Assembly: GCA_964427615.1 (NCBI GenBank)
Contig: CAYRUR010000001.1
Span: 50,425-114,424 of the forward strand
DNA from: an uncultured Gammaproteobacteria bacterium
GTDB lineage: Bacteria; Patescibacteriota; Microgenomatia; Levybacterales; GWA1-39-11
Reading direction: 5' to 3'
DNA length: 64,000 bases
The notes under the pieces are model-generated. The model was not told the origin of the DNA and ran no database searches. It worked only from the letters and a program-made list of their open reading frames with translations. Shown here piece by piece: positions 26,755 through 42,129 of this stretch. A program made the translations under genes and the position numbers. Each line of letters starts with the position of its first letter. The stretch's first letter is position 1.

Positions 26755-27765
26755 ATGTCTGAAAGATTATCTGCCGTGCCAGCTGAGGTTAGAGAAGAAA
26801 GTATAGACCATCAAGTAGAAGAAGATGCTACTCCAATAGACACACTTCTACCTTCGCCAGAAAATTTCACTCCTATAGACCCCTTTGATATTTACCTACA
26901 AGAGATTGGTTCTATCCCTTTGTTAACAGAAGAGGAGGAAATGATACATGCAAGAAGGCTAGAAGAAGCAAAAAAGGTTCTTAATAGTCCTGCTGCTAAA
27001 GACTTAGAAGTAGAGGAAATAAAAAGACTAGAGACACAAAAAAGAGAAGCACAAACACGTCTTATGGAAGCAAATTCAAAACTTGTAGTATGGGTAGCAA
27101 AAAAATTTCAAGGAAGAGGACTAGACATTTTGGATTTAACACAAGCGGGAAATATGGGATTGATGAAAGCTATTAATAAGTTCAAATTAAGCGAAGGTAA
27201 AAGATTAACAACATTTGCAGTCTATTACATCAGAGGAGCTGTTCAGAGAGCAATTGCTGAAAGTTCGCGCAATGTTAGATTACCAGTTCATATGCATGAC
27301 CGTCTTATTCGAGTAGGAAAAATAGAACAACAATTAAGAGACGAGTTTGGGAGAGAAGCAACTCTGGAAGAAATTGCTGAAAGGATGGATTTATCAGTAG
27401 CACAAGTCAAAAAGGTTTTATATCTCAGAAAAAACAACAACACAACTAGTATTCATGAGAAAAATAGAGAAAGAGAAAACGAAGAAATAGGAAACCTTAT
27501 TTTGGATAATGATAAAGGAGTGGATCCTGAAGAACAAGCAATTACTGCTTCACTAAGAGAACATGTACAAAGTTTTCTTTCACAACTGTCGGATAAAGAA
27601 AGAAGAGTAATGGAACTTCGATATGGCATAAGAGACAACATACCAAGAACCCTTGATGAGGTAGGAAAAGAGATTGGAGCTTCAAAAGAATGGGTAAGAC
27701 AGATAGAAAAAAGAGTCTCTCAAAAATTTAGAGAAGAATTATCTCATCTAAAAGACTTTCTCTAA
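26755..27765 (+). CDS. Second sigma-70-family sigma factor (RpoD-like paralog)
   Basis: TFAVYYIRGAVQRAIAESSRNVRLPVHM (region 2.4/3.0) and region 4 RTLDEVGKEIGASKEWVRQIEKR. Directly downstream of rpoD. Confidence 0.8.
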   Translation: MSERLSAVPAEVREESIDHQVEEDATPIDTLLPSPENFTPIDPFDIYLQEIGSIPLLTEEEEMIHARRLEEAKKVLNSPAAKDLEVEEIKRLETQKREAQTRLMEANSKLVVWVAKKFQGRGLDILDLTQAGNMGLMKAINKFKLSEGKRLTTFAVYYIRGAVQRAIAESSRNVRLPVHMHDRLIRVGKIEQQLRDEFGREATLEEIAERMDLSVAQVKKVLYLRKNNNTTSIHEKNRERENEEIGNLILDNDKGVDPEEQAITASLREHVQSFLSQLSDKERRVMELRYGIRDNIPRTLDEVGKEIGASKEWVRQIEKRVSQKFREELSHLKDFL

Positions 27766-27844
27766 CTCCTTTGCATATCAAGCTCAATATTGTATAATCG
27801 AAAGCGTATTCCGCGGTAGCTCAACGGTAGAGCAGGAAGCTGTA

Positions 27845-28412
27845 GCACTTTAAAAGAATTCTTTATCTGGCTATACTAAAAGTATGGCAGAAAAGAGAAC
27901 GTATGCTGACCGCCGAGAGTATTTAATTATGGCTGTTGCTCGAAGAAGAAAAAAACTTCGGGAAAAAGCTGTTGAATACAAAGGCGGAAAATGTATGATT
28001 TGTGGATATTCTCGCTGCCAAGCAGCGTTAGATTTTCATCACCTGGATGCCAATGAAAAAGAGTTTGGTATCTCGAAAGATGGAATAACAAGATCTTGGA
28101 AAAAAGTTCAAAAAGAGCTAGATAAATGTGTGCTCATTTGTTCTAACTGCCACAGAGAAGTACATGCAGGCATATTGCAGCCCTCTGCAGTAATGCAGAG
28201 TGGAAACATGGGGTGAATTCAGGGAAGCCCGCATCTTCAAAGAAGGGTAATCCTGAGCCAAGCTCGATAAATTGACAATAAAGTAATCGAGAAGGTGCAG
28301 AGACTAAGAGTGAGGAGTCATACCAATAAGCTCTATAAGCGCCCCATACCCTTAATATATGTATTAAGGGTAATGAGATAGTCCACACTTCTGGAAACAG
28401 AAGATAAAAGTG
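27845..28412 (+). mobile_element. Group I self-splicing intron inserted in the tRNA anticodon loop
   Basis: Conserved group I core elements are present: R-like GTGCAGAGACTAA (28296-28308) and S-like GAGATAGTCC (28375-28384), with P7 pairing GACTA/TAGTC. There is a terminal G before exon 2. The intron encodes an HNH ORF in a 5' peripheral region. Confidence 0.7.
27884..28216 (+). CDS. HNH homing endonuclease encoded within the tRNA group I intron
   Basis: 110 aa with CMICGYSRCQAALDFHHLDANEKEF...CSNCHREVH, i.e. an HNH motif (HH..N..CxxCH) with zinc-binding cysteines. Confidence 0.75.
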   Translation: MAEKRTYADRREYLIMAVARRRKKLREKAVEYKGGKCMICGYSRCQAALDFHHLDANEKEFGISKDGITRSWKKVQKELDKCVLICSNCHREVHAGILQPSAVMQSGNMG

Positions 28413-28438
28413 TAACTTCAAGGTTCTAGGTTCGAATC

Positions 28439-30127
28439 CTAGCCGCGGAGCACAGAAGGATTTTGAGACCACAAATCTTCTAAGTTAGTTGTATTATCAA
28501 CCTTTTCCGCAGGTTCTAACCGTGCAGAAATTGTAATTACTTTTTCTTTTGTTTCAGAAATATATTCCAGTGGTCTTTGAATCTGAGGAATAAGAATTTT
28601 GTCCCTAATTTTTAGGTTCGCACCAAGACCTGCAAATATTTCCCGTTTTGTTTGTCTGTCACCATTCTTAAACCAGTAACGGGCATAACATGCAAATTCA
28701 AACGTCTTTTCTGACAGCTCAACCCATTTACTAATTCTGTCTCCTGTATCTCCCAACTTTTCCTCAAGTCTTTGCTTTTCCCTCATCAATACCTCCTTTT
28801 GTGATCTAAATTCTTCATCACTGAGAAGGTTACCATTTGAATTGTGAGGAGATATCTTTAATTTAATAAGGTTATCAATACGCTTCGTAACATCACTGTA
28901 TGCCTCCTGTAACGCTCCTAGAGAAGCATTTCTGTCCTCAACCTCTCTATCATATAGCTCATTAATATACTTGATTGCCCAAGCCTTAAATTTCTCGGAT
29001 ATTTGAATGATAGAGAGTATCTCATCAATTTGTTTCTCAAGCTCTTCTTCTCGTATGCTACCTTGAGAACAATTAGAATCAACACGCTTTGTACAATGAT
29101 AATAAATATAATGAAGCAGGGTAGGATTATTCATCTCCTCAATTTTTACTTCACACTTAGGACAGACATCTTTATTTTGTGATGCAAATTTTTGCTTACA
29201 ATGAGGACAGATAATCTGGTACTTTTCTTCTGCGGTAATAGCAGCTCCACACTCACCACACTTCATAAGACCTCTATACAGAAATTCATAAGTTCTTGCT
29301 CTTGGACTTCCTTTTCTGCCAAGTAGCATTTGGACTCTCTGAAATTCTTCACGAGTAATCATTGGCTGATGTTTTCCTTTATGCCAAACTCCACTACCAA
29401 CGGGATATTCAAATTCCCCATAATAAAATGGATCAGTAAAAATTTTATAGATAAAACTTCTCGTCATTGGTTTTCCTCCTATACTTTTATGCTTGGGAGT
29501 TCTGTAGCCCATCTCGTCATTCAACATTCTAAGAATCTGAGGTGGAGTGTAGGTCCCCGTGAGCATCATATCCCATGCCTTCCTAATGAGAGGGAATCTC
29601 ACTGGATCAACTTTAATGGTCTTATTGCCTTTCTCAGCGTATTTATCATTCATATATCCAGGTTTTGCACCTGAAGGAAGCCATCCTTTTTCTGCTTTTT
29701 CCCGTAGTCCCCGCTTTACATTCTTTGAAAGATCATCAATAAACTTTTGAGCCATCCCAAATTCAACATACATCATAAATGAATTTTCACTTGCTTGATT
29801 GTACTCATTGGCAGGAGTACGCACCTCAATTCCTTTTTCTTTTATCATCCATATAACAGAACCTCCATCAACAGGATTCCTAGCCAAACGATCAACTTTC
29901 CAGCACAAAACGCCATCTATTCCCCCCTCGTACAAATAATTCATCATTTCGTTAAAAACGGGCCTTCCAGGGGCTTTTGCTGACCGTGACTCAGTATATA
30001 CCTTCACCACAGCGATATTGAGTCTTTTAGCCAACTCTTGAAGTTCTTTTATCTGAGAATCAATGGAGAGAACTTGTCTATCCTCTGACTCAGAGCTCTT
30101 TCTTGCATAAATGACATACTTTTTCAT
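28439..30127 (-). CDS. Large serine recombinase (integrase) with intact catalytic, recombinase and zinc-ribbon domains
   Basis: N-terminal resolvase domain [19 protein letters not shown]...[16 protein letters not shown], a recombinase domain, and zinc ribbon CGECGAA...CPHCKQKF...CPKCEVK with coiled coil. The 3' end overlaps the tRNA 3' exon by 12 nt. Confidence 0.85.
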
Positions 30128-30177
30128 AATCTTATTTTTATTTTGACCCGTCGCTTTTCCTAAGTCAACGGCCCTAC

Positions 30178-30741
30178 TTAACCCTTAATATTTTCATGAA
30201 TCCACCTGATATCACTTTCATCTAAGAGAGAGAAACGCTCTCTATCAAAATCCCAGTCGCTATTTTGATAACGTTCTTCTGATGAACCACCACCAGAAAC
30301 CTTATTCTTATCCTTATAGGAAACTATAGTATTACCACTACTTTTGCCTGAATCCTGTTGCATTGATGCATTATTTTGTTGCACCCTCGCATCATTAAAT
30401 TGCATACCTGAATTAGCTGACTGCACCTCTGCAATATCACTTACTAATACCCTATACCAACCATCCCCAATTTTACTCAAAACTCCCTTCTTTATTAGGC
30501 TATTGCGTGTTCTACAAACCTTTGAAGGTGACCAATGAAGAATGTTAGAAATATCGTAATCTGTAGCCTCAACTGTCATATATGTCTCTGTGTGTTTTTT
30601 ATCCCAATCATACAAAGCAAGACATAGATCAAATAAACGAAATTCTTGGTCTGTAAATTCCATTTCCTTTGCAATGACATGCCTGTTTCTTTTAACTTTT
30701 TGGTACGTTGTGTTTAGCCTTCTCTCAATAGGTCTTTTCAT
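30178..30741 (-). CDS. Hypothetical protein, possibly DNA-binding, carried by the integrative element
   Basis: 187 aa with a basic N-terminus, a putative winged-helix-like segment ([19 protein letters not shown]) and a low-complexity Q/N/S-rich C-terminus. Function unknown. Confidence 0.45.
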
Positions 30742-31311
30742 CTTTTATGCGATACTGTTTATAAATAAAAGCAAAAAAGTTCAAGAATCTTTTCGCAACT
30801 AATTGTGCCTCTTTTTCAGTAATATCTTCTCCATATTCTTCTTTCCATATTTTTTGAAACTCACTAATTGCACTTTTACTCAGCATGTTTCCTCCAATGA
30901 TCGGTTTTCAACAAAAATAATCTTTTTGAAAGTTTTAATAGTACCCAGAAGTATTCTTCATGTACAAATTGGGAATTTTTGCTGAAGTCACTTACATGCT
31001 CAATACATTTACCATAGAGAGAAAACTGAGAGTAGAGGGTGAAACTATTACGTCTTATACTGTGAAACTGTATGTCTTTTTGGGTAAGTAAGATTGGGAA
31101 GGTCTTTTTATCCTTGGTCGCAGAAAGGTTTTGTTTTGAGATTTCGTCTTTCATATACATATCCACACTCACATTTGTGCGGATGTGTACCGACCTTTCA
31201 ATCTCAGTACCTATGAAGGTATAGCGCCACTATACAAAATGCAATTTAGATTGTCAATACAGGTAAAACGTGTTATCTGAAGACACAAAATATACATCTA
31301 TATCACAGGTG

Positions 31312-31533
31312 TTACAAAGAGAGTAGTTCTGATAAGGAAATCTTTAGTGCTTCTGCAATTTTATGAACGGTATATATTGGCGGGTTACTCTCGCCTCTTT
31401 CAATCCTACCCATGTATGTTCTGTGAATTTCAGCATCATCCGCAAGATCTTCTTGGGAAATGTTCTGCTTCTTTCTCAGTTCCCTTATCCTTTCTCCGAA
31501 TCTTTTTAAAAATACATCCTTTGACTGCTTCAT
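31312..31533 (-). CDS. XRE-family helix-turn-helix transcriptional regulator (Cro/CI-like)
   Basis: QNISQEDLADDAEIHRTYMGRIERGESNPPIYTVHKIAEALKISLSELL is a canonical HTH_XRE. Confidence 0.8.
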   Translation of the reverse strand: MKQSKDVFLKRFGERIRELRKKQNISQEDLADDAEIHRTYMGRIERGESNPPIYTVHKIAEALKISLSELLSL

Positions 31534-31578
31534 GTTGAAATCGTATTCAAATGAACACTTGCAGTCTACACACGGAGA

Positions 31579-31788
31579 GTGTACAATACTCTCAACATTA
31601 TGATTTTTTCAAAGAAAAAGTGCCCAAGATGCAACAGCATAAACCTGAATAAAGTAAAGCCTAGTTTGTGGAAAAAATGGCAAAACGCATCAATGAACGT
31701 AATGTTCTTTCCATTTAGCTTATTAAGAAAACAAGTAAAGACTTTAAATGTGTGTCGCGATTGTGGGTTCTCTTGGGAAGATAGGTAA
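31579..31788 (+). CDS. Small zinc-ribbon protein
   Basis: 69 aa with CPRCNS...CRDCGF, two CxxC pairs. Divergent from the XRE gene across a 45-bp gap. Confidence 0.4.
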   Translation: MYNTLNIMIFSKKKCPRCNSINLNKVKPSLWKKWQNASMNVMFFPFSLLRKQVKTLNVCRDCGFSWEDR

Positions 31789-32071
31789 GTATGGGGAAAT
31801 ATAAGAGAGATTTTGAAAATTTTTACTATATCTTTTTACTAACTACGATACCTCAAAATCAACTTCAAAAATAGAATTTTAAATAGGGGGCATACTTTTG
31901 TAGAAGTAAAGAGACATACACGCTTACTCCCTTATAAACATGTTTTTCAACCTAATAAACTCTTATTTTGAATATCTTCCACTATATAATTGTTCATAAA
32001 ATCAGGTTATCTTGATATATCAAAGAGAACCTGCATACACACATTACTTTATCATTCAGATAATAAAGTAG

Positions 32072-33541
32072 TTGACAACTCTTTATCACTGGATTAATAT
32101 AGAGCTGATGGATAATCAAACTCACGAAAAAGTATATACTTACCTTCGGAATCAACTTGCACAGGCTGAAAAAAGACTTCAGGCATACACTGTAGATAGA
32201 GAAGGAAAACCATATTTGAAGCGAAGTGCAGCACTTGTACTTGAAAAGTATGTAAAAAACTTTTCTCAGAGTGGAAAGGAACCAAGATGGGTTGCTGTTC
32301 CAGGATTAAGAGGAGTGGGTAAAACCACATTGCTAGCACAAATATATACAGAATTAAGTTGTCCTCCTGGATATAAACTATATATTTCGCTAGATGAGGC
32401 GAGTCGTGTCCTTGGTGTAAGCTTAACAGACATACTTACAGTACACGAGGAATTGTTAGGAAAGCTCTATGAAGAACTTGATAAACCAGTATTCCTGTTT
32501 ATTGACGAAGTTCAATACGAAAAAAATTGGGGATTAGTTCTGAAGAGTATATATGACAGAAGTAAAAAAATATTTATCTTCTGTACAGGATCATCTGCTG
32601 TATCTTTACAAACAAACCCAGACGTATCAAGAAGAATTGTATTTGAAAAACTTTACCCACTTTCCTTTGTTGAATACATGCTTCTTAAACATCGTAAAAA
32701 GCCTATTACTGGCCTTGGAAAACAATTAAGAGACGCGCTAATTGCATCTTCTAGTGGAGAGGAAGTATATAAAAGACTTCTTAACTATCAGAATGATGTT
32801 AATAAGTACTGGATAGGAGTAGGAAGACTTGAAATTCAAAAGTACTTCAAATACGGCTCATTACCTTTTACCTTTCAGTTTACACAGGAACCCTTGATAT
32901 ACCAACAAATTGAACAGACCTTAACCAATATTCTTAACAAAGATATTCCTCAGTTAAGTAAATTTGAATCTGACACAATCACAAAAATGTATCAAATTCT
33001 TTACACAATCTCTGGTTCAAGTGTAACAAGCCTAAACTCCTTATCAAAAACTTTTAAAATATCAATTGTAACAATGGCAGAAATACTTGAGGTTTTTGAG
33101 AAATCAGAGATGTTACTTAGAATATACCCAAATGGATCACATTTTGGGCAAGTAAAAAAACCTTCAAAATATCTTTTTATCTCACCAGCATATAGGAGTA
33201 TGTTTTTCAACCTTATAGGTAGCACTTTTTCATACGATAATTACAAAGGGTTTCTTTTGGAAGATGTCGTTGGATTGTATCTCTATCGCACTTTGGGTTT
33301 AAGGTTTGGAACAAGCCTTACTTATGATAGTGCAGAGGGAGGAGCAGATTTTATTATAAGCTTTGATGATAAAAAAATAGTAGCTGAGATAGGTTATGGA
33401 AAAAAGGACTTTCAACAAGTAAAGACAACAATGAAGAGAGTTGGGGGTACATATGGCTTATCAATCTCTTCAACCCGACTTGCATTTGATAAAGACCAGA
33501 ATGTAATCTCAGTACCACTTGGCTACTTTTTACTAATATAA
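32072..33541 (+). CDS. AAA+ superfamily ATPase of the COG1373 / AAA_14-DUF4143 type
   Basis: Walker A VPGLRGVGKTTLL, Walker B FLFIDEVQY, and a C-terminal DUF4143-like region. 489 aa. Confidence 0.65.
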   Translation: MTTLYHWINIELMDNQTHEKVYTYLRNQLAQAEKRLQAYTVDREGKPYLKRSAALVLEKYVKNFSQSGKEPRWVAVPGLRGVGKTTLLAQIYTELSCPPGYKLYISLDEASRVLGVSLTDILTVHEELLGKLYEELDKPVFLFIDEVQYEKNWGLVLKSIYDRSKKIFIFCTGSSAVSLQTNPDVSRRIVFEKLYPLSFVEYMLLKHRKKPITGLGKQLRDALIASSSGEEVYKRLLNYQNDVNKYWIGVGRLEIQKYFKYGSLPFTFQFTQEPLIYQQIEQTLTNILNKDIPQLSKFESDTITKMYQILYTISGSSVTSLNSLSKTFKISIVTMAEILEVFEKSEMLLRIYPNGSHFGQVKKPSKYLFISPAYRSMFFNLIGSTFSYDNYKGFLLEDVVGLYLYRTLGLRFGTSLTYDSAEGGADFIISFDDKKIVAEIGYGKKDFQQVKTTMKRVGGTYGLSISSTRLAFDKDQNVISVPLGYFLLI

Positions 33542-33705
33542 CTAATCTTATGCAATAAGTTGGAGATTAATTTCATATCCTAACTCTGCTACTATTTTTA
33601 TGGGTCACACGTTTGTTCATTGCATGCTTCTGAGAACTAAGAAGAAATAATGAGCTATTTAAGAGCAGAGAAATGGAATTAAAGTAATCATAAGGTTATT
33701 TTGTT

Positions 33706-34659
33706 TTGAATAATTCTACTTGTAGAGGATATTCCTTCATGCCAAGACATAACAAAAAACATCACAAAATCCCAAAAACATATCTTGAAAGATTCACTGA
33801 TTCTGAAGGGTTTGTATGGATTGCAGATAGAAATCTCAATCTCTATCCCCAGAAACCAATAAACACTCTTACTGAAAATGATTATTACACAATACGGTTT
33901 AGAACAGGCGGTGGAACCCTTAATGTTGAAACAAAATTTTTAGGAGGAATAGAGACAAGATATTCAAAAATATATAAGCAAAAACTTGAAGGACAACAGC
34001 CCATATCTCAAGAGGACAAAGCAAAACTTTCAATATTTGTTGCCTCTATGTTGGAACGTCAACCAATGACACGACAGTCTCTTGAGAAGTTTTTCTCAGA
34101 AATTGAAGAACATATAACTCACATGAGAGGTTTACCAGACCATGTTAAGGAAAAAATGGCATCGGTTCCCGTGCTCTCTGGAAGTGGTCCATCATTCTCT
34201 GCGGATGAATTACTTGAAGCTGGGAAAGATGTCAGTTCACTTCACTCATCTCTTATACCCGACACTGTTGTTGATATTGCACCTATCATTTTTGATATGA
34301 AATGGGCATTTATGGTAAAACCAGAAAAATCAGAGCCTTTTATAACTTCCGATAATCCTTGTGTAATGGTTGACCCAGTGGGAGAAGCAGAATTCGGAAG
34401 GGGAACGTTTGGCGCAGCTCCAGGGTTTGTAAAAAAACATATAGAACTTACTCTGCCATTATCCAAGAATATGGCTCTCTTATGTGGATGGAAACTGGAG
34501 CATGACTGTTTTTACATAACAGTACCAGAAGGGCAGGTCAAAAACATAAATTTAAGGACAAAACGACACGCAGATTATGTTATTGGACACGATAAGAAAA
34601 TGCTCGAAGAAATGATAGAGAGAGTGAAAGCTTTTGAGAGAAAAACAGGCTCAAAATGA
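33706..34659 (+). CDS. DUF4238-like protein (a family reported as an antiphage gene)
   Basis: N-terminal NKKHHKIPKTYLERF resembles the conserved HH.P..YL..F start of DUF4238. 317 aa. The probable true start is the MPRHNKK ATG at 33739. Confidence 0.45.
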   Translation: MNNSTCRGYSFMPRHNKKHHKIPKTYLERFTDSEGFVWIADRNLNLYPQKPINTLTENDYYTIRFRTGGGTLNVETKFLGGIETRYSKIYKQKLEGQQPISQEDKAKLSIFVASMLERQPMTRQSLEKFFSEIEEHITHMRGLPDHVKEKMASVPVLSGSGPSFSADELLEAGKDVSSLHSSLIPDTVVDIAPIIFDMKWAFMVKPEKSEPFITSDNPCVMVDPVGEAEFGRGTFGAAPGFVKKHIELTLPLSKNMALLCGWKLEHDCFYITVPEGQVKNINLRTKRHADYVIGHDKKMLEEMIERVKAFERKTGSK

Positions 34660-34771
34660 TATATAGAAATTTCTTATATTGTCCTACATGCGGAACCAAC
34701 TATTTAGATTCAGAATTCTAGTACCCCACATGAGGCAGTAGAAACTCTGGTATACTTTTTGTGAAAATATA

Positions 34772-35464
34772 ATGAATAAGTCAGTAATCTACGCACGAGC
34801 ATTTGGAAAGCTCTACAAGCTATTTGATATTGTACTGAGAAACGATGAATCAATATACTTATACTTTCCAAGAAGAAAAGGCTACATTATAAAGAATAAG
34901 CAGGATATAGACCTTGGTGGCCAACAGAGCAAAACTTTTACCTTTAACAAGAATGTTCATGATAGAGTTACTAATCCATATGTGTCATTTCATCCAGGTA
35001 AAGGAGTAATACATGTGAATGCATTTAATGAAGAGAAAAAGATAGTACCTTTTCTTAAAGATAGAATGAGTCATTCTTTTAATGAGATATTAGATTCACA
35101 AACGTTTTTTCCTATACTAACAGTCCTTATCCCACCTGACATATTCAGCTTTGACAGTTTTGATGTACCACACAAGAATAATCTTATAGCTAACATTCCA
35201 CCTAATTTTCCCAAGGCTCTTTCAGTTGACTTAATAATCCATGAAAAGGGTGGTTATGTTGATAAGACTGAGCTGCCTTATGCAAGATTAAGAGATTTAG
35301 CTTTTATGGCTCATCTAAAAGATATACATACAAATAAAATCTCTTATACATTAGTTTTTAACAATGTTGAGGTGAGTGGTGAAGAGCTTTCAAGAGAAGT
35401 AATTACAATTATATGGAACAAGGAGATGCCGTTTTCTTTCTGTCTGAAGCCTCTTAAGGATTAG
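34772..35464 (+). CDS. Hypothetical protein
   Basis: 230 aa uninterrupted ORF with no recognised motif. Its stop overlaps the stop of the convergent recombinase fragment by 4 nt. Confidence 0.4.
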   Translation: MNKSVIYARAFGKLYKLFDIVLRNDESIYLYFPRRKGYIIKNKQDIDLGGQQSKTFTFNKNVHDRVTNPYVSFHPGKGVIHVNAFNEEKKIVPFLKDRMSHSFNEILDSQTFFPILTVLIPPDIFSFDSFDVPHKNNLIANIPPNFPKALSVDLIIHEKGGYVDKTELPYARLRDLAFMAHLKDIHTNKISYTLVFNNVEVSGEELSREVITIIWNKEMPFSFCLKPLKD

Positions 35465-36816
35465 GAAACAGACAAATAATAGGTTCTGATTGAGTCCATC
35501 AGGCGGAGCCAGAGTTCTCTTATCCGAACCAAGTCCATGTCTATGCAGGCTTGGAAGGCTTCGGTATAAGTGATATCAATGATTTTTTTGTTCTTAATCC
35601 AGATTTTTTGGATAAACCACTTCAGGAATTGTTTCCTCTCATTTTTGGTAAACGATTTATACAGTGCTGGTAAATCTTTTAGGGTGTTTATAATGGTATC
35701 TATCTTTTGCTCGTCTAAATTAGCGGATGGCCTTTTCAGTTTAGCAATTTTACCTTCAACTGCTTTCAGCTCTTCTCGTAATGGCACATATTTTGGTTCA
35801 ATTCGTTCTTTAGGAACCAGTTCTGATATTAACTGATCCTCCAGCTTATCCTTTTTCTTTTCGATAATTCTTTTACGATCTTCCAAGGCTTTAATTTGAC
35901 CTTGAATATCTTTACCTTGGGATCTCATGACATCCTCAAGCTCTGTCCGCAAAGCTCGTAAGAATCGTTCTCCAAATTTAATACCAGCAATATGGTCTTC
36001 GAGTTGTTTATGAACATCTTCCATGGGAGCATAAGGTTGAGTACATTTTATCTTTCTGTTTTTTGGCCCCATACATCGGTAATAACGGATTATTAACCCA
36101 CTTGGTTTTTTGTGCTCCTCACCGCTCATTAAAGTAGTGCATTCTTTACAAAAGACCATACCAGCCAGGAAAAAATTATGTTTTCTGGTTCTATCAGCGC
36201 CTTTATTGTGTTCTGCAAGCATAGCTTTTGCCTTATTTATATCATCCATCTCTACTACTTTAGGGTGGTGCCCTGGGTAAACCTTGCCCAAATATAAAAC
36301 TTTCCCTGCATATCTGACATCAGTAAGGATCGTATGAATTAAGCTATGACTTACTCTTTTACCATTAGGAGAGCGGAATCCTTCTTGATATAATTCTTCC
36401 TCTAACGTATAGACCGAAGGTGAAAGCCGGTTGTTAAACCTTCTAAAAATCTCTTTGATAAAATACTCTCGCTCCTTGTCAATTTTCCAGGGTACGCCTT
36501 TTTGAAATGAGTTAATATAGCCAATTCGTGCTTGTCCTGGTTGGAATCCTTTTTCAGCAAGAGCGATCATGGTACGCCTTGTTTTCTCACCAGTTATTTC
36601 TCGTTGGAGTTGATTAGCACCAGCCATCACCAAATCAACAAATTTTCCTACTGGATCATCTCCAAAGTTTGGTTGTTGCGTAGCAATAAGCTCGATATTA
36701 TGTTTTTTGAGAAGTGCTTTAACAGCTAAGTGATCTTGAGCATTTCTGGCAAACCGATCTGTTTCTTCCAGGAGAACGATATTTACATCCTTATCTGTAG
36801 GATATAATCGGGTTGT
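35461..36816 (-). pseudogene. 5'-truncated large serine recombinase that has lost its N-terminal catalytic region
   Basis: The ORF track shows a recombinase domain plus zinc ribbon from MVMAGANQ onwards. Manual upstream translation in the same frame gives TDKDVNIVLLEETDRFARNAQDHLAVKALLKKHNIELIATQQ (the C-terminal half of the resolvase catalytic domain; compare VDRLARN in the intact copy). The frame then hits a stop at 36817-36819 with no Ser-containing YxRxS motif upstream. An IS481-type transposase gene follows. Confidence 0.7.
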
Positions 36817-36835
36817 TTACACTTTTGGGAGGTGA

Positions 36836-37650
36836 AGACCTATCACAATTCATAAGAATACTCGATTAACCCCACATTTGCGAAAGGAGATATTTGAAAA
36901 GTATCATGTAGAGCGGATACGAGTAACTGAACTGGCTCGGCTGTATCATGTTTCACGAGTAACGATTTACAAAGTTTTGAAACGAGCTCGTCAGCAAGAG
37001 CTGTACCAACGCTCAAGTACTAATCTGCGTTATCGTAGTCTGGAGTATGGACTCAAGCGCTTAGCCAAGATCGAACAAAAACTTGAAGAAAAGCTAAAAA
37101 CACAGGCCAAACGTTATAACAAAGCCTATCCTGGTGAGATGCTCCATGTGGATACTTGTTCTCTGCCTCATCTACGGGGTGAGTCTCGTTTTACGCCTCA
37201 GGAATGTTTGCATATAGCCATTGATGATTTCTCTCGAGAGCTCTATGCAGCTATTCTGCCTGATAAAACAAGTGCTTCTAGTGCTTTGTTTTTAAAACAA
37301 GTTCTTGCTGAGTGTCCTTACACCATTGAACAAGTATACTCAGATAACGGGGTTGAATACAAAGGAAATCCTGATAAGCATGCATTTATGCAAGCTTGTG
37401 CAGAGCATGGCATTACCCAACGGTTTACCAGAGTCAGGACACCACGCACGAATGGAAAAGCAGAACGAGTGATCAGAACTATCTTTCAGATGTGGCATGA
37501 TAAGCATGAATTTACCAGTCGAGCTCAGCGGAAAGTGCTGTTAGTGCGTTTTGTCAATTATTGCAACACAGTTTGGGTTAAATCTTGTTGGATACGCAAC
37601 TGACGGATTCTATTTGCTAATTTTTTATCCTCTCGTTTTAACCTCCTCCT
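36836..37650 (+). mobile_element. IS481-family insertion sequence (boundaries approximate)
   Basis: Transposase ORF flanked on the left by the broken recombinase frame. Terminal inverted repeats could not be defined confidently by eye. Confidence 0.4.
36878..37603 (+). CDS. IS481-family DDE transposase (HTH plus rve integrase-core domain)
   Basis: N-terminal HTH RVTELARLYHVSRVTIYKVLKR, DDE core with HVDT..., SDNGVEY and TNGKAERVIRT. The apparent start is TTG at 36878; the frame is open from 36836. Confidence 0.8.
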   Translation: MRKEIFEKYHVERIRVTELARLYHVSRVTIYKVLKRARQQELYQRSSTNLRYRSLEYGLKRLAKIEQKLEEKLKTQAKRYNKAYPGEMLHVDTCSLPHLRGESRFTPQECLHIAIDDFSRELYAAILPDKTSASSALFLKQVLAECPYTIEQVYSDNGVEYKGNPDKHAFMQACAEHGITQRFTRVRTPRTNGKAERVIRTIFQMWHDKHEFTSRAQRKVLLVRFVNYCNTVWVKSCWIRN

Positions 37651-37809
37651 TTTTATGCGCTTCTTTCCCTCCTTCGATTCCATGTTTTTTAGTCTCGCAA
37701 GGAAGCAAATGGGTTACCATTAGCGCAAAGACAAGGAAAAGAGCTAAATGTATTGACTTTAGGATCTATTCTCGATACGCTTTTATATAGACCAGGCGCT
37801 AAGACAAAT

Positions 37810-38004
37810 ATGAAATTTCAAGTTCTCAACAAACATGACAATCCGAAAAGAAAGGAGCTTCTTAAAAAGGAACTACAGCTTTTTAAGGATCATCTCCAGA
37901 CACTTGCATGGCAATCTCACACCATTTTGAGTGGATTAAAAGAAGTACAGCAACGAAAACAAATAGAAGAAAAGATTAGACAGTTACAAACTCAACCAAA
38001 ATAA
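37810..38004 (+). CDS. Small coiled-coil protein immediately upstream of the MoxR-like ATPase
   Basis: MKFQVLNKHDNPKRKELLKKELQLFKDHLQTLAWQ...IEEKIRQLQTQPK. Ends 6 nt before the ATPase start. Uncertain whether it is expressed. Confidence 0.35.
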   Translation: MKFQVLNKHDNPKRKELLKKELQLFKDHLQTLAWQSHTILSGLKEVQQRKQIEEKIRQLQTQPK

Positions 38005-38010
38005 AAATGT

Positions 38011-39732
38011 ATGTCACAACCAACAGAGCCCCATATAGAAGATAATGTTAGAGGACTGGATCAGCGTGCCGAAAAACAACTTGTAAGACGAGAAATTTCT
38101 GAAGGTGTTAGTGAGTATTTTGATACTAAAGCAGAAGCTCGCACAGCAGCAGAGCATACACGAGGTGCTATTGGTCAGGATTTAAGATATGCCGAGGGAT
38201 TAAGAGATACGGGTGGGTCTACTGCTGAAACGGGCATCAGACGAATTAAGGATATTGCAGATCAGGTTGATACAGATACAGCAGCGTTTGAAGCAAAAGC
38301 AGATCGGTTGAGTTCTCCATACGTTATTTCTCCCCAGTTAGCAAAAGAACATAAAGTTGCAAGATTTCTTAAAAAACCACATTTACTTGAAGGTGAACCT
38401 GGAACAGGGAAAACCTCGCTTGCTTACGCCGTTGCAGGTGACGAAGGTTTGCCCTTAATTCATTGCCGAGGGAAAAGTACGCTAACTGCTCAATCAGTTA
38501 TGTATGAGGTAGATTATGTTGGGAGATTAAATGATGCCATGCTTGCACAAAATATCCCCGATGTATTACGAGGACAGACACAACAATGGGTCAAGTATTT
38601 AGAGTCTGGTGGGGATCCTAATGCAGCAGAATTCCAAAGTTTTATGGTTGGTTTTGAACACTCAGCAAAGTTATTAAATTTAGAAAAAGTATCAGATGTT
38701 AGAAGATACTTAAAATACGGTGAATTAGGAGAGGCTATTATCAGAGGAGCACAGGGTGAAAAAGTAGTTTTACTCTTTGATGAAATTGATAAGGCAAAGC
38801 GAGAATTCCCCAATGATTTACTTGATGAATTAGAACATCTAACTATACGAATCAGAGAAACAGGTGAGGAAATAAGCGCACCGAGAGAAAATGTTTTTGT
38901 TCTAATCACCTCAAATCATGAACGAGACTTACCAGAACCATTTTTAAGAAGATGCGTTTATAGTTATATAGATTTTCCTGATGCTGAACAAATGACAGAA
39001 ATTGTGAGGGCACATACTCCGGATATCAATGAGAGACTTCTTGAGAGCGCTGCAAGAAGATTTTACGAGATACGAGGACGAGCTGACTTACAGAAAAAAC
39101 CGTCTACATCAGAAATGTTAGATTGGGTACGAGTTCTCCAAGAGTTTGGAGTGGAAGAAGTAACTGACGAGACCCCATTTGCTGAAACACTACTTAAATA
39201 TAAGGAGGATCAAGATAAGTTAGGTGTCAGAGGGCGAAGAGAAGAAAAACTAATACAATCTGGTTTACCAGAATCAGTTGTCGCAGCACTCAATGGGGAT
39301 AAAGTAGTTCGCTTAAGAGCTGCCTCGTATTATGACCGAAATCCAAGCCCACAAGCATTAGTAAAATTAGCAAACGCTGGGTATCGGTTTACAACCGCAA
39401 AATCTGAAGACAGAAATGGCAGACCGTTTAATATACACGCCGATAATGTAAGACGAGTTGATGACTTAACATTTACTATTCTACCTTACGAAAAAACCAA
39501 GGATGGTACTATTACAAGCCCAAGTGATTTATACGAAATTTTAGAAGGAGCAGAAGCTATTGAATCAACAATGGAAGTGACAGATACACCAATAGAACTT
39601 GCTTCTATAGAAGATGGCAATGAGTATTTTATAAAAGGCAAAGATGCCCAAGGAAGAACAGTCTATCGAATGTCAGATGGGCGATTTGTCTACGAACAAC
39701 AAGTAGGGCAACATGCCAGCGAAAACTATTAA
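38011..39732 (+). CDS. MoxR-like (AAA_5) AAA+ ATPase with N- and C-terminal extensions
   Basis: Walker A LLEGEPGTGKTSLAYAVA, Walker B VVLLFDEIDKA, sensor region VFVLITSNHERDLPEPFLRRC. About 200 aa of unrecognised C-terminal sequence. Confidence 0.75.
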   Translation: MSQPTEPHIEDNVRGLDQRAEKQLVRREISEGVSEYFDTKAEARTAAEHTRGAIGQDLRYAEGLRDTGGSTAETGIRRIKDIADQVDTDTAAFEAKADRLSSPYVISPQLAKEHKVARFLKKPHLLEGEPGTGKTSLAYAVAGDEGLPLIHCRGKSTLTAQSVMYEVDYVGRLNDAMLAQNIPDVLRGQTQQWVKYLESGGDPNAAEFQSFMVGFEHSAKLLNLEKVSDVRRYLKYGELGEAIIRGAQGEKVVLLFDEIDKAKREFPNDLLDELEHLTIRIRETGEEISAPRENVFVLITSNHERDLPEPFLRRCVYSYIDFPDAEQMTEIVRAHTPDINERLLESAARRFYEIRGRADLQKKPSTSEMLDWVRVLQEFGVEEVTDETPFAETLLKYKEDQDKLGVRGRREEKLIQSGLPESVVAALNGDKVVRLRAASYYDRNPSPQALVKLANAGYRFTTAKSEDRNGRPFNIHADNVRRVDDLTFTILPYEKTKDGTITSPSDLYEILEGAEAIESTMEVTDTPIELASIEDGNEYFIKGKDAQGRTVYRMSDGRFVYEQQVGQHASENY

Positions 39733-39735
39733 CTT

Positions 39736-41307
39736 ATGTATGAAGGCGCAGAAACAAGTCCACAACCGCAACCACCTCATATCCCAGAACTATCTTCCCA
39801 GCAAGAAGGCGGACATGATTTCCAATATGACCCCGAAGCCCAAAGTATTCTTGTCCGTTCTGTAGATAGGTCAGGGACAATTAAGGAACAAAAACATCCC
39901 TTTCAAGAACTTCTTTACTCTCTGCGAAATGAAGGTGTTCAAGCTACAACTAGCGAATGGCTTGATCTTCAACGTTGTTTAGCAGAAGGCCAAGTACAAA
40001 GTCTTGATGACTTATATGTCATTGCCCGGAGCTTGCTGGTAAAAGATGTCTCAGGATTTCCATCATTTGATACTGTGTTCGGAAGAGTTTTTTATGGCGT
40101 TGAACCACCAAAGCCAAAAAATGAAGATGAATGGAGTGATGAATATGAAGAACCAGAAGAAGAGCCTCAACAAGAACGAGATCAAGATGAGGCAGAAGAT
40201 GAAGCCACAGAAGAACCTATTCAAAAGGAAAAAGAAGATATAGAAGAAGTGGTAGAAGCAACTACAAAAACTTCGGAAGATGTTCATGGTGGTGATGAGG
40301 CGACCAAAGACATAGAAGATTCTCCAAATGCTGCAAATGAAGGCAAGCAACTTGATAACCATGGTGCTGAAAAAGGAAAGAGTAAAGAAAATCAAAAGAA
40401 AAAAGGCGAAGGTGGAGGCCAACAGCAACAAAATGCTCAGGGTGGAGGTAATCAACAAGAAAAAGGACAAGGAGGCGGTGACAAAAATACTGAAGGAGAA
40501 GGTGGCGATGGTGAAAAAGAAAATGATGCCGGTGGAGGTAAAAGGTTAGAAAAAGCAGAAGGTGTAGTAAAGGAAGGAAAAGGTGGGTTTTCTGCTCGTG
40601 AACGAGTCATGGAGCGAAGGTATGATGGCTATGACAAAGACAAGATCTTAGGATATGAACAATTTAGCCAAGTTCTTGCAAAACTTACTACTATTATGCG
40701 TGATGCAACTACAATTAGGACATCACGATTAGATCAGCTTGCTACTGCTCGGAGTATTGCACAGCATGGCGGCGTACCAGAATTTGTTTGGGAAGAAGAA
40801 GCAGAGGAAAAGCCAAAAGTTGTTGTATTATTTGACGTTGGAGGAAGTACTGATGAATTCCGTCCTATTATGGAAAAACTTTTCGCCGCTGCAAAAGATA
40901 CTATTGATGAACTTGATGTTTATTATTTTCATAATGCTATCTACGGCGATGTTTGGCCACAGAAAGATGGTAACTGGGGGGAGCACTTTATTCCAATGCG
41001 AGAAATACTAAAAAGAGATGAAAACACCAGGGTTATAATTGTAGGTGATGCTTGGATGGCAGAAGGTGAGCTACATGGTGGAGGTTCTTATTATGATGAA
41101 CAAGAAAGTTCAGAAACCGGATACGATAACTTCAGAAAAATACAACGAACATTTCCTCATACTGTCTGGGTAAATCCGATTTTAGAAAGAGATCATGAGC
41201 AATGGGATAATTCAGGAACAATTGCAGACATTAAAGGTATTTTCCCAATGTATGATTTAACTCTACGAGGTTTAGAAAATGCAGTTAGACGTTTAATGGA
41301 AGAATAA
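39736..41307 (+). CDS. vWA-domain protein (partner of the MoxR ATPase) with a long acidic/Gly-rich disordered linker
   Basis: C-terminal VVVLFDVGGSTDEF (MIDAS-like DxGxS/T) ... IIVGDAWM. The central ~170 aa is E/D/K/G/Q low complexity (EDEWSDEYEEPEEEPQQ...GGGQQQQNAQGGGNQQEKGQGGG). Confidence 0.65.
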   Translation: MYEGAETSPQPQPPHIPELSSQQEGGHDFQYDPEAQSILVRSVDRSGTIKEQKHPFQELLYSLRNEGVQATTSEWLDLQRCLAEGQVQSLDDLYVIARSLLVKDVSGFPSFDTVFGRVFYGVEPPKPKNEDEWSDEYEEPEEEPQQERDQDEAEDEATEEPIQKEKEDIEEVVEATTKTSEDVHGGDEATKDIEDSPNAANEGKQLDNHGAEKGKSKENQKKKGEGGGQQQQNAQGGGNQQEKGQGGGDKNTEGEGGDGEKENDAGGGKRLEKAEGVVKEGKGGFSARERVMERRYDGYDKDKILGYEQFSQVLAKLTTIMRDATTIRTSRLDQLATARSIAQHGGVPEFVWEEEAEEKPKVVVLFDVGGSTDEFRPIMEKLFAAAKDTIDELDVYYFHNAIYGDVWPQKDGNWGEHFIPMREILKRDENTRVIIVGDAWMAEGELHGGGSYYDEQESSETGYDNFRKIQRTFPHTVWVNPILERDHEQWDNSGTIADIKGIFPMYDLTLRGLENAVRRLMEE

Positions 41308-41318
41308 TCCCTCAGCTT

Positions 41319-41546
41319 TTATAAAGCTATTGCAGGAGCTTGAGAACTCTCTGTTTTTGCCCTATAATCGCTTATGGTACGGATAATATCCCAGAGGGGG
41401 AGCCATAGTTGATTATCATTGTACGATAATATCGTATCAAATGGTTTTTGAGCTTGAAATTGCACGTTTTTACCCTCTAATTTCAGGTTCTGAAGTGTAA
41501 GCCTTATTAACTGCCGTCTTTCTTCAACTTCTGAACTTTCAAACAA
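41319..41546 (-). CDS. Small hypothetical protein, last gene of the minus-strand four-gene cluster
   Basis: 75 aa ORF with no motif. Confidence 0.3.
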   Translation of the reverse strand: MFESSEVEERRQLIRLTLQNLKLEGKNVQFQAQKPFDTILSYNDNQLWLPLWDIIRTISDYRAKTESSQAPAIAL

Positions 41547-41652
41547 TTCATACGCTTTATTTGCCAGTTCTAGTAGGTATTTAGCCGTGATGTAGTAGTT
41601 ATCCTCTGCTTCCTGTAATAATGCCAGTATGGTATCTATATCCGCAATCTGT

Positions 41653-42129
41653 TCACAGAACGACTGATAAATCTGTCATGGTCGCTTTCAGTAATACACC
41701 TGTAGCTATATCATATTGGGGTGTTTGCATGCCCTTTATTATGTTTAGCTGTTGTTCCAGTATCTGTATTTGAAGCTCCGTCATATACGCCTCACATTCT
41801 TCTTTTTGTCTTTCCCAGTCTGATTTTTTGATAGTTACAGGCGGGTCATATCTTTCAAAATTAACTAAATCAACTTCAGGTGGTTCGTATATCGGTAGCT
41901 CTGGCATTTTGATAGTCTGCAAAATGTCTAAAGCAGGAAACTTGTAAGCTGTGATCGTCTTCAAAACTTCTGCCATGTTTGAGTTTGCTATCTCGGCTAA
42001 AGTAGTCCCTAGTTTGGTAAATTGCTCATGATTTGCTTCTACAATCGGTTTTAATGCTTCTGCTCGTTCTTCAACAGACATCTTATCCAAATCGTAGAGA
42101 GTTACTTTTTTATCAGATAATTTCGGCAT
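41653..42129 (-). CDS. Hypothetical protein, third gene of the minus-strand cluster
   Basis: 158 aa, acidic, with coiled-coil-like segments. No motif recognised. Confidence 0.4.
   Translation of the reverse strand: MPKLSDKKVTLYDLDKMSVEERAEALKPIVEANHEQFTKLGTTLAEIANSNMAEVLKTITAYKFPALDILQTIKMPELPIYEPPEVDLVNFERYDPPVTIKKSDWERQKEECEAYMTELQIQILEQQLNIIKGMQTPQYDIATGVLLKATMTDLSVVL

Follow-up and report, generated by a model that had tools for sequence, protein, structure and literature searches.

Group I introns of subgroup IA that interrupt the tRNA-Asn(GUU) genes of Patescibacteria between tRNA positions 35 and 36 have been described by Nakagawa et al. (mSystems 2026, PMC13011429; preprint 10.1101/2025.07.03.662931), at a site catalogued earlier as 'Asn.4Ug' (Williams 2020, bioRxiv 10.1101/2020.01.27.920355, as cited in PMC13011429). 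A gene of this kind is present in the stretch of DNA analysed here, a 64,000-nucleotide window of contig CAYRUR010000001.1 (GenBank assembly GCA_964427615.1, positions 50,425 to 114,424), where a split tRNA-Asn gene carries an intron with an open reading frame (ORF) for an HNH protein. [quoted passage not shown] Changing the terminal guanosine (omega-G) to C blocks exon ligation, and the intermediate accumulates. Most introns of this class are without an ORF, four tRNA-Asn introns encode HNH (PF01844) proteins, and genes for one anticodon with and without an intron rarely coexist. Standard tools miss such genes or call them Thr through a 2-nt shift (PMC13011429). The survey covered complete genomes only; it found HNH-bearing 35/36 IA introns in Patescibacteria only and considered horizontal transfer to be probably infrequent.

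The window locus is a further example of this published, experimentally supported class, not a discovery. It shares with the Patescibacteria tRNA-Asn introns the tRNA, the insertion site, the U before the intron and the G at its end, the ambiguity between Asn and Thr, the host phylum and an extra element between P7 and P3', and an HNH protein is encoded in the four published examples. Nothing essential differs, the window being a draft contig of metagenome-assembled genome (MAG) type and the published loci coming from complete genomes. The original prediction, made from the sequence of the window, had considered such an intron unusual for this kind of genome, a view that has to be abandoned in light of the published class and its experimental validation in Patescibacteria (PMC13011429).

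Other tRNA introns with homing endonuclease genes are found in the cyanobacteria. The group I introns of tRNA-fMet (I-Ssp6803I) and tRNA-Arg(CCU) (LAGLIDADG) are likewise in the anticodon loop and their presumed endonuclease target is the intron-less tRNA gene (PMC13011429), as is proposed for the window. However, the cyanobacterial introns encode PD-(D/E)XK or LAGLIDADG enzymes, are inserted at 33/34 or 36/37 and are mostly of subgroup IC, whereas in the window the enzyme is HNH, the site is 35/36 and the subgroup is most likely IA. Endonuclease genes are known generally in phage tRNA clusters (PMC6409571), including the free-standing SegB of T4 (GIY-YIG; PMC2330249) and F-TflI/II/IV of T5 (Akulenko et al. 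2004, cited there). These resemble the phage relatives of the window HNH, but the window gene itself is inside an intron within a tRNA and SegB belongs to another nuclease family. I-HmuI of SPO1, I-TwoI of Twort and I-BasI are HNH nicking endonucleases of phage group I introns, and so bring together the same kind of intron and the same enzyme family as the window. However, these introns are in protein-coding genes and the enzymes are larger and multi-domain, and the likeness is at the level of description.

It is very probable that the window locus is a Patescibacteria-type tRNA-Asn(GUU) gene containing a self-splicing group I intron at 35/36, most likely of subgroup IA, with a homing endonuclease gene of the HNH family in its P1 loop. 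The Rfam model Intron_gpI (RF00028) matches 28114-28404 over its full length (model positions 1-253), scoring 100.5 bits where the gathering score is 50 (E 7.4e-25), and is the sole Rfam family matched in the 64 kb. In its default mode ARAGORN identifies no tRNA in the whole window. With the intron search it returns one cloverleaf, tRNA-Asn(GTT), at 27810-28451 with a 569-nt intron, and removal of 27844-28412 leaves a single cloverleaf with the anticodon GUU. This is the only tRNA-Asn gene found within the window. Both searches had been suggested in the original prediction and they bear out its group I intron and its two tRNA halves, placed about 570 nt apart and folding as one cloverleaf. Of its span, 27811-28450, the end is correct, being the discriminator G73, but the start was one base late; after splicing the tRNA measures 72 nt as far as the discriminator (34 + 38), rather than the 73 nt given.

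The splice boundaries were established from related loci, which are the best 80 of 569 stretches of GTDB species-representative genomes that encode a relative of the HNH protein. The reading CUGU|intron...G|UAA fits all 80 of these and, with the window included, a U precedes the 5' splice site and a G precedes the 3' splice site, before TAA, in 81 out of 81 loci. The pair U1-A72 and the discriminator G73 are present in the window and in all 80 relatives. This is the pattern of bacterial tRNA-Asn, while bacterial tRNA-Thr has G1-C72 and A or U at 73 (E. coli reference). The tRNA type reported by ARAGORN for the 80 loci varies between Asn, Thr, His, Ser and Tyr. The His, Ser and Tyr calls (L018, L030, L071, and L080) were rejected, the wrong 3' partner having been chosen; all four loci fit CTGT|...G|TAA.

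Intron-less alleles were sought by scanning metagenomes for the spliced anticodon and T arm. A total of 26 uninterrupted genes were retrieved, 25 of which are tRNA-Asn(GTT) according to ARAGORN, with the other, L102, cut off by the end of its contig. Most are 94-97% identical to the window exons, the alignment breaks exactly at 27843|28413, and the anticodon loop is CTGTTAA. Several of these alleles are in a matching dnaG-rpoD-tRNA-Asn neighbourhood. The intron is therefore present in some of the lineages that have this neighbourhood and absent from others. Judged by these sequence comparisons, the ambiguity between Asn and Thr is resolved to tRNA-Asn(GUU), the assignment that had been favoured from the start, with the intron between positions 35 and 36.

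In the ribozyme core, the motifs GCAGAGACTA (28297-28306) and GATAGTCC (28377-28384) form P7 and the intron ends in G at 28412, both as had been noted from the window sequence. Covariation was assessed in a MAFFT alignment of 74 intron cores, with the helices placed by hand on the window sequence and the pairs counted. Across the 74 introns 84% of cells are paired, compared to 67% in shuffles and 33-45% in controls with a slid partner strand. Changes on both sides are seen in 42 of 56 pairs, and the observed values were reached by none of 500 shuffles. Compensatory changes support P2, with its GNRA loop, P3, P4, P5, P6, P6a, and the base of P8. All of the helices pair in the window copy, including the P3/P7 pseudoknot, and it is intact at all positions that are invariant across the 74 introns, these being the GCAGC guide, P7, J8/7, and omega-G. 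From what is generally known of group I introns, G28302-C28383 would be the guanosine-binding pair.

At the 5' splice site, U35 (27843) forms a U.G wobble with the first base of the guide (U27843.G28177). In 76 of the 80 loci there is a pair between the first base of the intron and the base just ahead of the guide (35 A:U, 35 G:C, 5 G:U, and 1 U:A), while the mean for the same pairing in shuffles is 58 and the maximum is 65. The guide is 300 to 350 nt from the 5' splice site in 77 of the 80 loci and adjoins the site in three ORF-less introns. Given this distance between the strands of P1, the ORF sits in the P1 loop. Candidates for a guide near the start codon, from the first 70 nt of the intron, were 'GCAG' in ATGGCAGAA at the start of the ORF and 'GGCU' at about 27870. 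These were rejected because the second codon varies among homologues and it is the invariant GCAGC that covaries with the first intron base.

The region between P7 and P3' can form one 5 bp hairpin in the window (28307-28311/28330-28334). Among the relatives there are three variants of length and sequence in this region, many with two clear hairpins. Extra helices between P7 and P3' are a hallmark of subgroup IA. The insertion, coupled with the published class, makes subgroup IA the most likely assignment for the window intron. The features of the locus are listed in Table 1.

Table 1. Features of the split tRNA-Asn gene, its intron and the intron-borne ORF, in positions of the 64,000-nucleotide window.
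Feature	Position	Strand	Description	Evidence
tRNA-Asn(GUU) gene	27810..28450	+	Whole gene including intron; U1-A72, G73 at 28450	ARAGORN with intron search; sequence
5' exon	27810..27843	+	TCCGCGGTAGCTCAACGGTAGAGCAGGAAGCTGT; 34 nt; acceptor, D arm, anticodon stem GGAAG, loop C32 U33 G34 U35; last base U, just before 5' splice site	
3' exon	28413..28450	+	TAACTTCAAGGTTCTAGGTTCGAATCCTAGCCGCGGAG; 38 nt; U36 A37 A38, anticodon stem CTTCA, variable loop, T arm, acceptor strand, G73	
Group I intron	27844..28412	+	569 nt; tRNA position 35/36	RF00028, 100.5 bits; ARAGORN; boundaries from comparison with 80 related loci and with 26 alleles lacking the intron
HNH (His-Me finger) endonuclease ORF	27884..28216	+	110 aa; in P1 loop	ORF list; Pfam; invariant residues; profile matches; dN/dS
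P1 5' strand	27839..27845	+	GCUGU|AG; last 5 exon and first 2 intron nt	Pairs with 28175-28181
P1 3' strand	28175..28181	+	UU and internal guide GCAGC (28177-28181)	Guide invariant in 74 introns
P2	28183..28200	+	Hairpin, 7 bp, GUAA (GNRA) tetraloop	Both-side changes in 7/7 pairs; 91% of cells paired
P3 5' strand	28208..28215	+	ATGGGGTG; pairs with 28340-28347	Compensatory changes in 5/8 pairs
P3 3' strand	28340..28347	+	CGCCCCAT	Covariation count
P4-P5 domain	28219..28256	+	P4 28219-28224/28251-28256; P5 28227-28230/28245-28248	Compensatory changes in 7/10 pairs; 90% paired
P6 and P6a	28257..28296	+	P6 28257-28259/28294-28296; P6a 28263-28268/28286-28291	Compensatory changes in 8/9 pairs; 93-98% paired
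P7 5' strand	28300..28306	+	GAGACUA; bulged A28301	Six P7 pairs invariant in 74 introns
P7 3' strand	28379..28384	+	UAGUCC	Covariation count
P7-P3' insertion	28307..28339	+	P7.1/P7.2 region, 33 nt	Insertion relative to Rfam model
P8	28348..28371	+	Hairpin, 10 bp	Compensatory changes in 10/10 pairs; proximal 4 pairs well aligned
P9	28388..28403	+	Hairpin, 6 bp, GAAA tetraloop	Rfam alignment; sequence
Terminal G (omega-G)	28412..28412	+	Directly before U36	G before TAA in 81/81 loci

The intron-borne ORF encodes the 110 aa protein with the CxxC...HH...N..CxxCH residues that had been predicted. Invariant in 20 homologues are C37, C40, H53, C86, N88, C89, H90, and H94, which include the catalytic His, Asn, and His and two zinc-binding CxxC pairs, and 13 of 20 close homologues match Pfam HNH at E <= 0.01, the best with 1.8e-05. 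Against solved structures the family profile has weak matches only (E 0.01-0.02), the best of them to the HNH domain in a maturase of a group II intron (6ME0) and the other to McrA (6GHC). A gap-free core of 90 codons is present in 69 of the 80 loci. Compared to the window, nonsynonymous divergence (dN) is 0.1-0.3 and synonymous divergence (dS) is saturated, with dN/dS of 0.04-0.24 where it could be computed. The HNH gene is therefore maintained by purifying selection.

The ORF and the ribozyme share sequence. The guide, P2, and the P3 5' strand all fall within the last 40 nt of the ORF, whose TGA stop codon is made up of the final two bases of that P3 strand plus the base that opens J3/4. The C-terminal codons are ...L-Q-P-S-A-V-M-Q-S-G-N-M-G-stop, with the guide within the conserved L-Q-P; the C-terminus of the protein is conserved because its codons double as the guide, P2, and half of P3. 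With the end of the ORF being a strand of the ribozyme, translation and ribozyme folding would be mutually exclusive on one RNA molecule. In some relatives, including L002, L004, L007, and L010, there is no stop at the end of the P3 5' strand and the frame runs on through the ribozyme core, giving proteins of 130 to 156 aa. Such read-through ORFs have been annotated with unrelated names (Elf1, MCM, and McrA).

In the proposed mechanism, GCUGU|AG (27839-27845) of the precursor would pair with UUGCAGC (28175-28181), which would put the U35.G wobble at the 5' splice site. Cleavage after U35 would be by an external guanosine that occupies the G-C pair in P7. The terminal G at 28412 would then occupy the guanosine site and U35 would be joined to U36. 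Ligation would restore the anticodon GUU in a 72-nt tRNA, with CCA being added after transcription. The HNH protein would nick or cut the intron-less tRNA-Asn gene near the anticodon loop, and repair would copy the intron and its gene into the cut allele. Indirect evidence for homing of this kind comes from the presence or absence of the intron in syntenic loci, the purifying selection on the HNH gene, and the phage homologues beside tRNA-Asn. The closest of these homologues, being free-standing, favour a nuclease directed at tRNA-Asn.

Several points weigh against this interpretation. The window protein itself scores 17.4 bits against Pfam HNH (PF01844), under the cut-off of 21.4; the HNH profile search that had been suggested thus succeeds for the family, through the homologues that match, but not for the window protein on its own score. 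The P9 region was misaligned by MAFFT and is outside the covariation count. A P10 was sought, but no convincing pairing of the 3' exon with the bases 5' of the guide was found, that available being weak. It is assumed that the exons are aligned by the anticodon stem instead, as with the tRNA-Leu intron of Anabaena (Zaug et al. 1993, cited in PMC13011429). The splicing of the window copy is predicted indirectly, by its homology with experimentally tested relatives, and the cleavage of intron-less tRNA-Asn genes by the HNH, driving homing, is a putative activity for the whole clade. The inspection was confined to 64 kb and a second, uninterrupted tRNA-Asn gene is possible elsewhere in the genome.

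The conservation of the HNH gene can also be viewed in another way. In the general homing-cycle model, decay is the usual expectation for a homing endonuclease gene once it is fixed. A role for the protein in intron folding, like that of a maturase, or a benefit to the host would account for conservation as unusually strong and long-lasting as that seen in the saturated dS, the low dN, and the 90-codon core of these species-level relatives. The overlap of the ORF with the guide, P2, and P3 and the maturase HNH domain as the best structural match could be read in the same way. Even so, it is improbable that the HNH has ceased to be a homing nuclease or has another role besides. The invariance of its catalytic residues and both CxxC pairs points to a retained nuclease, ORF-less introns of the class still self-splice in vitro (PMC13011429), and for the free-standing phage homologues, which adjoin uninterrupted tRNA-Asn genes, there is no intron to help. 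In addition, intron-less alleles coexist in nature and therefore targets for continued homing exist.

There is a much smaller chance that the split gene is a dead relic, in which the ribozyme or the tRNA is defunct and Asn is decoded by the product of another tRNA-Asn gene elsewhere, such as might exist beyond the 64 kb. The encoded CCA has been lost (the sequence runs ...GGAG|CAC) and the final 12 nt of the tRNA are shared with a recombinase gene. However, many relatives are likewise without an encoded CCA, and the sole mismatch in the tRNA, G27-A43, is common to the 26 intron-less alleles, which were retrieved with that anticodon arm. The intact invariant positions, the paired helices, and the full-length Rfam match speak against a relic, and an intron-less second copy would be at odds with the rarity of such coexistence (PMC13011429).

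Hardly any weight can be given to the gene being tRNA-Thr(UGU), its intron shifted 5' by two bases (33/34; CU|...G|UGUAA): although in the window alone both cuts leave a U before the intron and a G at its end and both spliced products fold as a cloverleaf, and 25 of the 80 related loci are called Thr by ARAGORN, a miscall also made by ARAGORN and tFind in PMC13011429, the Thr cut fails in many relatives, where it would leave A or T as the last intron base (such as ...gataaa|TG in L006 and ...ggggcaat in L034), every locus has the U1-A72 and G73 of tRNA-Asn, the intron-less homologues read CTGTTAA, and sequenced products of in vitro splicing are joined at 35/36 (PMC13011429). The Thr reading was rejected on this comparison of junctions across relatives and intron-less alleles, leaving the tRNA-Asn(GUU) gene with its 35/36 intron.

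Homologues of the HNH protein are numerous, with at least 1,707 in the protein collection and at least 569 stretches of GTDB species-representative genomes encoding a relative, and the HNH-bearing form is counted in as many species representatives. In all 80 of the loci retrieved the ORF is in or next to a split tRNA. Among these best 80 of 569, the HNH-bearing tRNA-Asn intron is also found beyond the Patescibacteria, including in Acidobacteriota, Elusimicrobiota, and Bipolaricaulota. In Blastocatellia/Pyrinomonadaceae it is on contigs of 2.9 and 5.5 Mb, the 5.5 Mb contig being a chromosome, and it is present in Elusimicrobia, Acetothermia, and Aerophobetes. A contig labelled Limisphaerales also carries the intron, with a sequence that groups with the Patescibacteria type. 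When the HNH sequences are clustered by similarity, most of the non-Patescibacteria sequences included fall in one group. Three loci deposited as 'uncultured Gammaproteobacteria' (L005, L011, and L072) have an rpoD beside tRNA-Asn with approximately 70-74% protein identity to the window rpoD, and these labels are probably wrong. Some MAG labels being unreliable, taxon counts from record titles therefore need care.

In three Patescibacteria loci (L053:1224-1805, L078:1501-2155, and L081:1501-2131) a free-standing HNH gene is upstream of a tRNA-Asn with a 206 to 244 nt ORF-less 35/36 intron. The gene in L078 is intact and ends 13 nt before the tRNA-Asn gene, and the C-terminus of its protein is without the L-Q-P motif that encodes the guide in the intron-borne form. 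From their arrangement these loci could be intermediate between the free-standing and intron-embedded states.

A total of 554 phage records contain an HNH homologue, and 14 loci from INPHARED and 80 from IMG/VR were examined. In all nine INPHARED loci with at least 56% identity (56-64%), the HNH gene is free-standing, part of a tRNA array and no more than about 110 nt away from tRNA-Asn(GTT). These are from phages CR3, Bastille, DAC15, VH1_2019, Kaldavass, BCU4, phiKp_21, fHe-Yen9-04, and XbC2 (L108-L116), which include Herelleviridae, Vequintavirinae, Straboviridae, Crassvirales, and several jumbo phages. The HNH is not beside tRNA-Asn in three INPHARED loci at 46-53% identity or in two T5-like loci, the T5-like phages having more distant homologues in their tRNA regions. 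For IMG/VR, 69 of the 80 loci have tRNAs within 1.2 kb and the nearest is Asn in 39 of the 69, where 11.9 would be expected and 20,000 simulations gave at most 23, although related contigs are not independent and the significance is somewhat overstated. No intron was found in the tRNA-Asn beside the phage HNH in 12 INPHARED loci, and the intron-embedded form is present in one (L121) of 20 IMG/VR loci scanned with Rfam. A search of the literature on endonucleases of phage tRNA clusters found no report linking this HNH clade to tRNA-Asn or to the Patescibacteria intron.

Some features of these phage loci had not been annotated. Klebsiella phage phiKp_21 (LC768485.1, approximately 2040-2270, minus strand; L114:4-232, which is L120) has a group I intron of 98.3 bits against Rfam, with a core very like those of the tRNA-Asn introns. 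The intron splits a tRNA whose anticodon region is CAU (...GACGACTCAT|...), and its place in the jumbo phage's tRNA array is upstream of the tRNA-Asn and HNH pair by a few hundred bases. There is an unannotated tRNA with the Asn loop CTGTTAA in Bacteroides phage DAC15 (L110:1334-1405) and an unannotated tRNA-Asn in Erwinia phage Kaldavass (L112:1516-1590). A 'tRNA-Val-GTT' label in Acinetobacter phage Aci05 (L117:1709-1780) was confirmed by neither ARAGORN nor Rfam.

It is possible, though the chances are put at a little short of even, that the HNH is a member of a widespread nuclease clade with the tRNA-Asn gene as its specific target. Such a clade would exist in two states, free-standing beside tRNA-Asn in the tRNA arrays of phages from many unrelated families (and in a few Patescibacteria, immediately upstream of a tRNA-Asn with an ORF-less intron) and embedded in the P1 loop of the tRNA-Asn intron in hundreds of bacterial species of several phyla. 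The window HNH may derive from a free-standing gene of the phage type. A pathway in which a free-standing homing endonuclease gene moves into a pre-existing intron at its own target has reportedly been proposed by Bonocora and Shub.

The genes neighbouring the split tRNA encode a ComM-like ATPase, DnaG, RpoD, and a second sigma-70 paralogue. Among named sequences this RpoD is closest to those of 'Patescibacteria group bacterium' at 88-90% identity, followed by Levybacteria/Microgenomates at about 77%. From these relatives and the neighbouring genes, the window is therefore chromosomal DNA of a bacterium of the Patescibacteria (candidate phyla radiation, CPR). The second sigma-70 paralogue (26755-27765; 336 aa, regions 1.2-4) is between rpoD and tRNA-Asn. 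In L095 and L105 tRNA-Asn directly follows rpoD, at about 80 to 120 nt, and by this comparison of gene order the second sigma-70 gene appears to be an insertion or duplication in the window lineage.

On the other side of the tRNA, an integrated element of approximately 13 kb (28439-41405) appears to be directly at the 3' end of tRNA-Asn. Its large serine recombinase gene (28439-30127, minus strand; Resolvase, Recombinase, and Zn_ribbon_recom domains) is the one that overlaps the tRNA, and serine recombinase homologues also adjoin tRNA-Asn in L020, L022, L033, L045, L050, L059, L063, L077, L080, L102, and L105. The right boundary was identified from L091, which is intron-less, and L011, which is intron-bearing, both having a homologue of window 41400-41654 right after tRNA-Asn. 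The sequence GGAGC is common to both ends (...GCGGAGC|AC at the tRNA and ...GGGGGAGCCA at 41399-41405). A long direct repeat of the tRNA 3' end, as an attachment (att) repeat, was sought and not found, these 5 nt alone being shared. By the sequence at the two ends, the encoded CCA of the tRNA seems to have been displaced to the far end of the element. Its cargo includes a Crp-like helix-turn-helix gene, a small regulator-like ORF (31312-31533), AAA_14/DUF4143 and DUF4238 genes, a second recombinase without a catalytic domain (35461-36633), an rve transposase (36878-37603), an AAA ATPase, and a VWA-domain protein.

By itself the window locus is one more example of the Patescibacteria introns, and it is the phage link and the spread across phyla that go beyond PMC13011429. 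A tRNA-Asn that is missed or called Thr makes a genome look as though it has no tRNA-Asn and lowers estimates of completeness, as already recognised there. The wider survey suggests that the endonuclease-bearing form is much commoner and more widely distributed across phyla than was shown by the survey of complete genomes, and that its nuclease has relatives among phage genes located beside tRNA-Asn. If the HNH is indeed a tRNA-Asn-specific clade with two states, these loci would record the steps by which a free-standing endonuclease gene enters a pre-existing intron at its target, and the tRNA intron would be in active movement across phyla, which would conflict with the published inference of bacterial tRNA introns that mostly have no endonuclease and are seldom transferred. 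If confirmed, this would provide a testable system for the union of an endonuclease with an intron, and a candidate nuclease with a defined tRNA gene target.

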